Shown: in pieces, positions 1 to 1,063 of the stretch | How the letters are laid out: each line of letters starts with the position of its first letter | Numbering within the stretch: the first letter of the stretch is position 1 | DNA from: Clostridia bacterium | GTDB taxonomy: Bacteria > Bacillota > Clostridia > Oscillospirales > UBA644 | DNA length: 40,602 nt | Direction of reading: 5' to 3' | Assembly: GCA_017440085.1 (NCBI GenBank) | Contig: JAFSHW010000036.1 | Coordinates: 1 to 40,602 of the forward strand | Notes under the pieces: model-generated | What the model was told of the DNA's origin: nothing | Database searches by the model: none | Seen by the model: the letters and a program-made list of their open reading frames with translations, nothing else | Position numbers and translations under genes: made by a program

Positions 1-63
1 CCAGAGATGTAAGTATGGTGACATATTCAGTTGACTGGTACTAATAGGTCGAGGGCTTAACCT
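1..63 (+). rRNA. rrl: 23S rRNA, 3' end (partial)
   Basis: ...TTCAGTTGACTGGTACTAATAGGTCGAGGGCTTAACC matches the conserved 3' terminus of Firmicute 23S rRNA; followed by a spacer and 5S. Exact end approximate. Confidence 0.92.
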
Positions 64-196
64 GAGAGAGTTCAGGTTGTTTGGAAAAGATAGAAGAATT
101 TGACTTGAAGAGTTTTTTCGTGAGATTTAAAGCAGAGGAAGATTATATAAGGAAGTTATTCAGTTTTGAAGGTACAACCTTCAGAGAAAAAGGAAT

Positions 197-314
197 AGTC
201 GGTGTCTATGACGGCGAGGATCCACCCGTTCCCATTCCGAACACGGTAGTTAAGCTCGCGGGTGCTGAAAATACTTGGCTGGAGACGGCCCGGGAAAATA
301 AGACGATGCCGACT
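197..314 (+). rRNA. rrf: 5S rRNA, copy 1
   Basis: Conserved core CACCCGTTCCCATTCCGAACACGGTAGTTAAGC; terminal helix AGTCGGTG/TGCCGACT; 118 nt; directly after 23S. Confidence 0.97.
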
Positions 315-384
315 CTCCTTTTTTTTCTATATGTGAAAGAATCTGTGAGAGAGGTTCTGGGAAGCAAAAATACAGAATAAAATA

Positions 385-500
385 GTTGGTGTAGATAATG
401 TTGGGGTACCACCCGTTCCCATTCCGAACACGGTAGTTAAGCCCAAAGATGCCGAAAATACTTAGTTGGAGACGACTTGGAAAAATAGGGAAATGCCAAC
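385..500 (+). rRNA. rrf: 5S rRNA, copy 2 (divergent paralog)
   Basis: Same core as copy 1; terminal helix GTTGGTG/TGCCAAC; helices preserved by compensatory substitutions. Confidence 0.93.
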
Positions 501-511
501 AAAAAGATTAC

Positions 512-586
512 GGCCCGTTGGTCAAGCGGTCAAGACGGTGGCCTCTCACGCCGCAATCGGGAGTTCGACCCTCCCACGGGTCACCA
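512..586 (+). tRNA. tRNA-Glu (anticodon CTC)
   Basis: Acceptor GGCCCGT/ACGGGTC, anticodon stem GTGGC/GCCGC with loop CT-CTC-AC, T arm GGGAG-TTCGACC-CTCCC, encoded CCA. Confidence 0.96.
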
Positions 587-735
587 AGCAAACACACTGC
601 AAGCATAAATTAGTATGCTGCAGGTTAATATACCAGCGGAAGGGATTCCGGAAGCGAGAAAAGGTGGAAGATATACGGAAATACGTGTAATTTCATTGCG
701 CTTCACAAAAGAAATCCAATCCCCGCTCATAATTT

Positions 736-812
736 GGACCATTAGCTCAGTTGGTTAGAGCTACCGGCTCATAACCGGTTGGTCCGGGGTTCGAGTCCCT
801 GATGGTCCACCA
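736..812 (+). tRNA. tRNA with CAT anticodon, probably tRNA-Ile2 (lysidine-modified) rather than Met
   Basis: Acceptor GGACCAT/ATGGTCC, anticodon loop CT-CAT-AA, T loop TTCGAGT, encoded CCA. G1-C72 pair excludes initiator; body resembles Firmicute tRNA-Ile2 as recalled. Confidence 0.93.
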
Positions 813-1063
813 AGAATAACAGACATACCGCATGGTATGTCTGTTATTCTTTATATAGAGCCATCGGGGACGAGAAGGGTCGGAAGTGAATGACGTTCCG
901 GTGGAACGTCAGAGCCGACCCCGCTCTTTTCCGCAGAAAAGGCGAGTCCTTGATCAAGATTAGACATTCCTTATGGTATGTCTTTTATGCTTTATATTGA
1001 ACCTGCAGGGACGACAAGATCGTGCGTTTGTGAGCGCTTCCTGTGGAAGATGAAGCTCTTTTC
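792..1063 (+). repeat. tRNA-linked degenerate tandem repeat (~140-150 bp unit, about two copies) with a multi-stem palindromic element
   Basis: CGAGTCCCTGAT..CAAGA..AGACATACC..ATGGTATGTCT..TTTATAT (792-856) recurs as CGAGTCCTTGATCAAGATTAGACATTCCTTATGGTATGTCT..TTTATAT (943-997); GGGAC..TTCC(G/T)GTGGAA..CTCTTTTC recurs at 867-931 and 1008-1063. Confidence 0.7.
812..856 (+). terminator. Intrinsic terminator-like hairpin after the last tRNA
   Basis: Perfect 18-bp inverted repeat AAGAATAACAGACATACC-gcat-GGTATGTCTGTTATTCTT followed by TATAT. Confidence 0.8.

Follow-up and report, generated by a model that had tools for sequence, protein, structure and literature searches.

A divergent, structurally intact 5S rRNA paralogue in tandem with the standard 5S gene of an rrn operon in uncultured gut Clostridia

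A few species of an uncultured gut genus of Clostridia carry, in one of their two rrn operons, a second 5S rRNA gene (copy 2) directly behind the genus-standard gene (copy 1), and this second gene is a genuine, structurally intact 5S rRNA paralogue. We consider it probable that copy 2 is a co-transcribed and redundant paralogue that has not been homogenised and evolves fast, under a structural constraint that is relaxed but real. The gene lies in the window, that is, the whole 40,602-nt stretch of DNA analysed, which is contig C28 of a metagenome-assembled genome (G000; 760,765 bases in 38 contigs, 61.6% complete). The public runs that contain the locus are gut or faecal metagenomes.

The window opens inside an rrn operon in which the 23S end is followed by copy 1, copy 2, two tRNA genes and a hairpin (Table 1). 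The coordinate of the 23S end was inferred from the ...TAGGTCGAGGGCTTAACC motif, which is also found at the 23S 3' ends called by RF02541 in two relatives (L035, L036). To judge by its predicted fold, the hairpin after tRNA-Met is likely to be the operon end, and its stem is kept, with a C-G to A-U change, in G002 and G004, which are two other species of the genus. The structured spacer between the two tRNA genes matches no Rfam family at gathering score; it is kept in G002 and mostly missing from G004. The genes beyond the operon are ordinary chromosomal ones (a sigma-70-like protein, two metallophosphoesterases and an ABC transporter), and no mobile-element genes were present among the neighbouring genes inspected in the window. 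Similarity of the window to G002 and G004 stops at about 1000-1012, and a 92% orthologue of the 523-aa sigma-70-like ORF (1224-2795) sits on a different contig of G002, so that gene order past the operon differs among close relatives. A second operon end in G000 (contig C11) contains a 5S gene identical to copy 1 and then tRNA-Lys(CUU), with no second 5S.

Table 1. Features of the rrn operon end at the start of the window.
Feature	Position	Strand	Remarks
23S rRNA 3' end	1..61	+	contig begins within gene; ends in ...TAGGTCGAGGGCTTAACC
23S-5S spacer	62..197	+	about 184-194 form the 5' strand of the copy 1 precursor stem (fold of 183-330)
5S rRNA copy 1, genus-standard type	198..314	+	RF00001 91.4 bits
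Spacer between 5S genes	315..384	+	316-326 (UCCUUUUUUUU) form the 3' strand of the copy 1 precursor stem (fold)
5S rRNA copy 2, divergent paralogue	385..501	+	RF00001 83.3 bits
tRNA-Glu (anticodon CUC)	512..586	+	10 nt past copy 2; ARAGORN; Rfam tRNA 55.2 bits
Structured spacer, tRNA-Glu to tRNA-Met, 149 nt	587..735	+	fold z-score -3.5; 2/200 shuffles as stable
tRNA-Met (anticodon CAU)	736..812	+	ARAGORN; Rfam tRNA 69.5 bits
Terminator-like hairpin	812..858	+	18-bp stem 812-851, then UUUAUAU; -26.6 kcal/mol, z-score -8.3

The initial annotation, made by eye, had described two tandem 5S genes of about 76% identity that share a 34-nt core and have diverged by compensatory base-pair changes, and this description proved accurate. 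Indeed, both copies match RF00001 over its full length (model positions 1-120) with scores above the gathering cut-off of 38, as expected of genuine 5S genes. Each is 117 nt long, and in an ungapped comparison 89 of 117 positions are identical (76.1%), leaving 28 differences (23.9%); the longest common run is the 34-nt core, at positions 25-58 of each gene. The differences were placed on the 5S fold by means of the Rfam consensus, with helix IV refined by RNAalifold. Sixteen of the 28 belong to eight pairs that are altered on both sides with pairing retained, and all the helix changes listed in the initial annotation are present. From copy 1 to copy 2, six of the eight run from G-C to A-U (C-G to U-A at 3-114, 15-65, 18-61 and 82-91; G-C to U-A at 17-62; G-C to A-U at 80-93), the other two being A-U to G-C at 20-59 and U-A to C-G at 69-104. 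Two further differences make up a pair lost in copy 2, the innermost of helix I (9-108, C-G to A.A), and the remaining 10 fall in unpaired columns. The remark that copy 2 had mostly taken A-U for G-C is thus borne out: among paired positions copy 2 has 16 G-C and 11 A-U pairs and copy 1 has 21 and 7, while overall G+C is 45% in copy 2 vs 56% in copy 1.

In spite of these changes, copy 2 still forms 31 of the 34 pairs of the 5S fold. When 28 random substitutions were introduced into copy 1, the mean number of compensated pairs was 0.8 and the maximum 5; none of 20,000 trials reached eight, and none kept 31 of 34 pairs, which agrees with the earlier view that the divergence is compensatory and not simple decay. 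In parallel, an alignment of 14 distinct 5S sequences from the family had 93.9% of its cells paired and showed two-sided changes at 11 pairs, a level that none of 500 shuffles reached, while slid controls of the same alignment gave 24-40% pairing. The three-way junction fold with helices I-V is therefore supported by covariation in copy 2. The two copies are alike in columns 25-58, in loop D (GAGA) and in the loop E region except column 97, and their differences fall in helices and junction bases, apart from the loops that contact proteins and 23S rRNA.

Conservation of copy 2 in relatives had been named beforehand as a test, and the gene is present at the same place in G002 and G004, where the layout 5S-5S'-tRNA-Glu(CUC)-tRNA-Met recurs. 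Copy 2 of G002 is identical to that of G000, while copy 1 differs at 4 positions; copy 1 is 95-98% identical to the 5S of other species in the genus. The largest intragenomic 5S difference is 23.1% in both G002 and G004. Between G000 and G004, identity is 113/115 for copy 1, 74/75 for tRNA-Glu and 77/77 for tRNA-Met, each with no gap column, and 106/116 for copy 2 with one gap column (ungapped 107/117, 91.5%, no indel); it drops to 50/70 (71%, 40 gap columns) in the spacer between the two 5S genes and to 41/70 (59%, 81 gap columns) in that between the two tRNAs. Thus, copy 2 evolves faster than copy 1, at about five times its rate of change, and much slower than the adjoining non-coding DNA. 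The 10 changes between the copy 2 genes of G000 and G004 include one double compensation (1-116, G-C to A-U). In helix I, the orthologues also show two wobble steps, at 3-114 and 7-110 (U-A to U-G and G-U to G-C), and G004 copy 2 breaks the pair 33-43. Since G000 and G002 are nearly identical at the locus, the comparison effectively involves two lineages, 10 substitutions and one double compensation, and its power is small. Outside the 34-nt core the two copies are too unlike for gene conversion, so that copy 2 evolves alone; the same dissimilarity can explain why copy 1 is the same in both operons while copy 2 is divergent.

Copy-2-type genes are present in three of 16 genomes of the genus and in three of 46 of the family, to be read with the fact that only 10 of the 16 genus genomes contain any match to the locus and that many have no assembled rRNA region. 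The operon end with tRNA-Glu and tRNA-Met is assembled in six genus genomes: G000, G002 and G004 have copy 2, and G008, G010 and G013 have copy 1, then 21 nt, then tRNA-Glu, with no copy 2. Gain in the first group and loss in the second are indistinguishable here. No copy-2-like gene was found in the other genomes of the 46 of the family, the 401 of the order and the 399 scored of the class, where the best outside match was 82% over the full length (G278, from another family) and otherwise at most 85-86% over part of the gene. Across one genome per species of the GTDB collection, an 18-mer specific to copy 2 occurred at 53 loci, of which 51 are chance matches outside any 5S, and it lay within a 5S only in the two known relatives. 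The remaining two, L072 and L079, are not independent finds, as they give the same BLAST matches as G002:C52 and G004:C52. Among metagenome contigs, a 21-mer of helix II/V had no match, and a 21-mer of helix IV matched five contigs, none of them orthologous, with 5S genes only 68-77% identical to copy 2. All five (L169-L173) carry the helix IV hairpin of copy 2, identical over its 21 bases, inside the 5S of unrelated lineages, indicating that this helix IV variant serves ordinary 5S rRNAs elsewhere. In plasmid and phage records, identity was at most 81% over matches covering more than a third of the query, and higher values came from short matches to the conserved core.

As for the origin of copy 2, we slightly favour a duplication at the site itself, after which compensatory changes accumulated fast. 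Acquisition from another lineage with insertion behind copy 1, which had also been proposed in the initial annotation and would be compatible with any function, is unlikely, though several features point that way. Copy 2 is 76% identical to its own copy 1, and 5S genes from other families can be just as close or closer (up to 82%, G278); its U-A at 3-114 and GAUA junction bases are common in other families. A maximum-likelihood tree of 67 distinct 5S sequences over all columns joins the copy-2 pair to the 5S of G278 (98/87 support), the branch that leads to the pair being long (0.23). This placement is undercut by three results. By the AU test, neither a placement of copy 2 within the family clade (p 0.33) nor one next to copy 1 (p 0.097) is rejected. 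Once the 3' side of every pair is removed, so that compensated changes count once (83 columns), copy 2 falls nearest to 5S genes of its own family; the grouping with G278 is gone, and with it the tree signal for a foreign origin. Finally, in the unpaired columns copy 2 is matched best, the copy-2 group aside, by members of its family (0.88). Copy 2 also has family-typical states, namely U at column 50 and the GAGA loop. The searches described above likewise argue against a foreign source, as they found no donor among the family, order and scored class genomes, no 5S with the 18-mer beyond those of the two known relatives in the GTDB species genomes scanned, and only limited identity in plasmids and phages; the lack of mobile-element genes nearby points the same way. 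A separate idea, that the spacer before copy 2 derives from the 23S-5S spacer (both have a similar TGAGAGAG..TTC.GG block), was rejected, since shuffled sequences scored at least as high in local alignment in 94 of 500 and in 207 to 460 of 1000 cases.

Copy 2 appears to be transcribed as part of the operon, as suggested by its position ahead of a single terminator-like hairpin, its distance of 10 nt from tRNA-Glu and the lack of a promoter-like site upstream. In particular, a consensus scan of the + strand from window position 1 to about 1060 found no sigma-70-like promoter, the same scan having missed the hairpin at 812-851. The locus is held by 22 public runs from 12 studies, of which DNA runs X1 and X8 and RNA runs X15 and X16 were examined as contigs. 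Run X1 gave a 392-nt contig that spans the end of copy 1, a longer spacer like that of G004, copy 2 and tRNA-Glu. In X15 and X16, positions 451-510 are uncovered, which is neutral on transcription, X16 holding a relative without copy 2, as seen from a contig in which tRNA-Glu directly follows the end of copy 1. Regarding the proteins that bind 5S rRNA, genes for uL18 and uL5 had matches in G010 and G013 and none in the incomplete G000, G002 and G004. The bL25 family (PF01386) was found in none of these five genomes, two of which are 95% complete, and the genus may lack this protein, which binds loop E of 5S rRNA.

The maturation of the two copies probably differs. Folded with its flanks (183-330), copy 1 forms an 11-bp stem that extends helix I, and this extension is absent from copy 2 and from its G004 orthologue when they are folded with their own flanks, in keeping with the initial annotation, which had noted a precursor stem for copy 1 only. 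RNase M5 of low-G+C Gram-positive bacteria uses the double-stranded precursor stem of 5S rRNA, and the stem of copy 1 would suit this enzyme. G000 encodes an RNase M5-like ORF of 198 aa (G000:C27:5195-5791) with Toprim and DUF4093 domains, which scores 88.3 bits against TIGR00334, below the cut-off of 110.65; the RNase M5 model is the sole model that this protein matches. As copy 2 has no precursor stem, its ends are probably made by a different route. RNase P cutting at tRNA-Glu would first define its 3' end, leaving a 10-nt trailer. Copy 2 is also the less stable RNA in predicted folds: its canonical 5S fold has -22.6 kcal/mol vs -28.6 for an alternative minimum, the corresponding values for copy 1 being -36.1 and -37.2, and with its flanks it is no more stable than shuffled sequences (z -0.5; +1.1 for the G004 copy).

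Taken together, the AT-biased compensated changes, the lost helix I pair and the weak fold are better explained by relaxed constraint on a redundant copy than by a new function, and copy 2 would enter ribosomes and act there as a minor, largely redundant 5S rRNA. A more ambitious proposal, to which we give a small chance, is that copy 2 is functionally distinct and builds a second population of ribosomes with a role or timing of its own. Its retention across species with fold and loops intact would fit, and its flanks, being unlike those of copy 1, make a separately controlled maturation possible. However, in the consensus scan copy 2 has no promoter of its own and should be made in step with copy 1; the differences lie in helices and junctions and not in the loops that contact proteins and 23S rRNA; the sister species G008, G010 and G013 do without copy 2 in the same operon, so that it is dispensable in the genus; and its faster rate fits relaxed, not new, constraint. 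The fullest form of this proposal, in which a functionally distinct 5S has been kept through speciation, is matured without the RNase M5 route and resides in a separate ribosome population, is more doubtful again. If true, it would give bacteria an equivalent, within a single operon, of the dual 5S systems known in animals and would bear on the heterogeneity of bacterial ribosomes, here as a possibility only.

Relaxation of constraint on a redundant copy could also be complete, in which case copy 2 would be a decaying or neutral extra copy with no selected function. We regard this as improbable. It is true that copy 2 changes faster than copy 1, that it has lost G-C pairs towards the low G+C of the genome as well as one pair of helix I, that its fold is weak and that sister species do not have it. 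Nevertheless, the marks of a pseudogene are missing: the fold is kept, and copy 2 has no indel and 91% identity to its G004 orthologue, compared with 59-71% in the neighbouring spacers with their 40 and 81 gap columns. Survival of 31 of 34 pairs through 28 changes has no parallel in the 20,000 random trials, and pairing-preserving substitutions have continued within the copy-2 lineage.

It is more improbable still that the gene has a non-ribosomal role, as a 5S-shaped RNA that serves as a folding or processing module for the downstream tRNA genes or as a binding site that titrates uL18/uL5. The short distance to tRNA-Glu (10 nt), the missing precursor stem of a normally matured 5S and the low stability of copy 2 could be read in this way, but sister species make the same tRNAs behind a 21-nt spacer with no copy 2, and the features conserved in copy 2 are exactly those of a working 5S. 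To our knowledge, a 5S-like RNA with a non-ribosomal role of this sort has no precedent. Lastly, an assembly chimera or mis-binned sequence, conceivable for a contig that begins inside an rrn operon in a 62%-complete metagenome bin and for a 34-nt common core that exceeds the usual assembly words, can be set aside as very unlikely, since the tandem with its own spacer stands on contigs of 40.6, 28.3 (G002) and 37.9 kb (G004) from separately assembled genomes of three species and is bridged by the X1 contig, and since a switch within the common core would yield a hybrid gene and not two complete genes plus a spacer.

As a redundant paralogue under relaxed but real constraint, copy 2 offers a clean natural example of an rRNA gene freed from concerted evolution, in which a quarter of the bases have changed, mostly by swaps of paired G-C to A-U, while the fold has been retained. 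The example comes with an outgroup (copy 1), a series of orthologues and sister species without the gene, and it can be used to study compensatory evolution and to ask how much helix sequence a 5S rRNA requires. It is also a caution for annotation and binning pipelines, as very unlike 5S genes can share one organism.

Tandem 5S pairs occur in other families of the order as well, with the two genes within 120-490 bases on one strand, and they are far more alike (98.3% identical in G278, 94.9% in G243 and 94.9% in G250, vs 76.1% here). In a chosen set of 11 other multi-copy genomes of the order, which is not a full survey, the lowest intragenomic 5S identity ranged from 90.6% to 99.1%; this baseline excluded G059, in which one locus was counted twice, and G008, whose second 5S comes from a suspect contig of 4.4 kb. 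In the G250 tandem (L133 1501-1782; L154 434-550), the downstream copy stands out, being 91.5% identical to the copy on another contig and 5-8.5% off the genome's other copies, and from its sequence it looks like a milder case of the same drift as in copy 2. Three other arrangements were observed in passing. The 4.4-kb contig of G008 (L038, G008:C142, positions 1-537) has a 23S end, tRNA-Lys(CUU) and a third 5S type, with identities of 78% to copy 1 and 77% to copy 2, which clusters in the tree with the 5S of a different family (93/86); the contig may be mis-binned, or it may represent a further divergent operon. In G278 (L130 1300-2108, G278:C19), two 5S genes do not stand behind a 23S gene and each has a TTGCAT ... 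TATAAT-like stretch ahead of it, which would suit free-standing 5S transcription units. In a sister genus (L037 451-525, G033:C56), a match to the Gut-1 RNA (RF01706, 65.6 bits; cut-off 50) lies just past a 5S and a tRNA gene.

Sequence-distinct rRNA variants retained in one genome are known from the oocyte and somatic 5S genes of Xenopus and from the divergent operons of Haloarcula and Vibrio, where each variant has a promoter or operon to itself and differential expression has been documented. Like these variants, copy 2 is retained beside another type; unlike them, it lies within the operon of copy 1. The layout is closer to that of rrnD of Escherichia coli, whose distal end has two nearly identical 5S genes with a tRNA gene between them. 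In both cases one rrn operon has, at its 3' end, an extra 5S gene and tRNA genes that are part of its transcript (as proposed above for copy 2); here, in contrast, the copies are only 76% identical and are separated by no more than a 70-nt spacer. With regard to divergence, a 2012 survey by Pei et al. reportedly listed dozens of species whose own 5S copies differ by more than 10%, with secondary structure conserved through nearly all of these differences, and is said to have tied high diversity to partial or split operons and to spacer differences. Copies 1 and 2 agree with those cases in differing by more than 10% (23.9%) through changes that conserve secondary structure (16 of 28 in compensated pairs), and depart from them in that one operon contains both types as a direct tandem, the divergent one being conserved across three species. 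The novelty implied by the initial annotation was thus overstated, as divergent intragenomic 5S genes with conserved structure had reportedly already been surveyed in that work. A divergence of 24% is presumably at the high end for 5S genes of one genome, and our literature search found no paper on a tandem, strongly divergent bacterial 5S pair, by which absence from print is not claimed. Normal and expanded 5S rRNAs coexist in Thermoanaerobacter and Desulfotomaculum and, where that report describes them, differ by inserted expansion segments (Stepanov and Fox 2021, PMC7812874). As in those genera, one genome here has two clearly different 5S types; unlike the types described there, both are 117 nt long and differ by substitutions only. 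Collectively, these comparisons place copy 2 within a known phenomenon, of which it is a strong and rather extreme example, located inside an operon and conserved across species.
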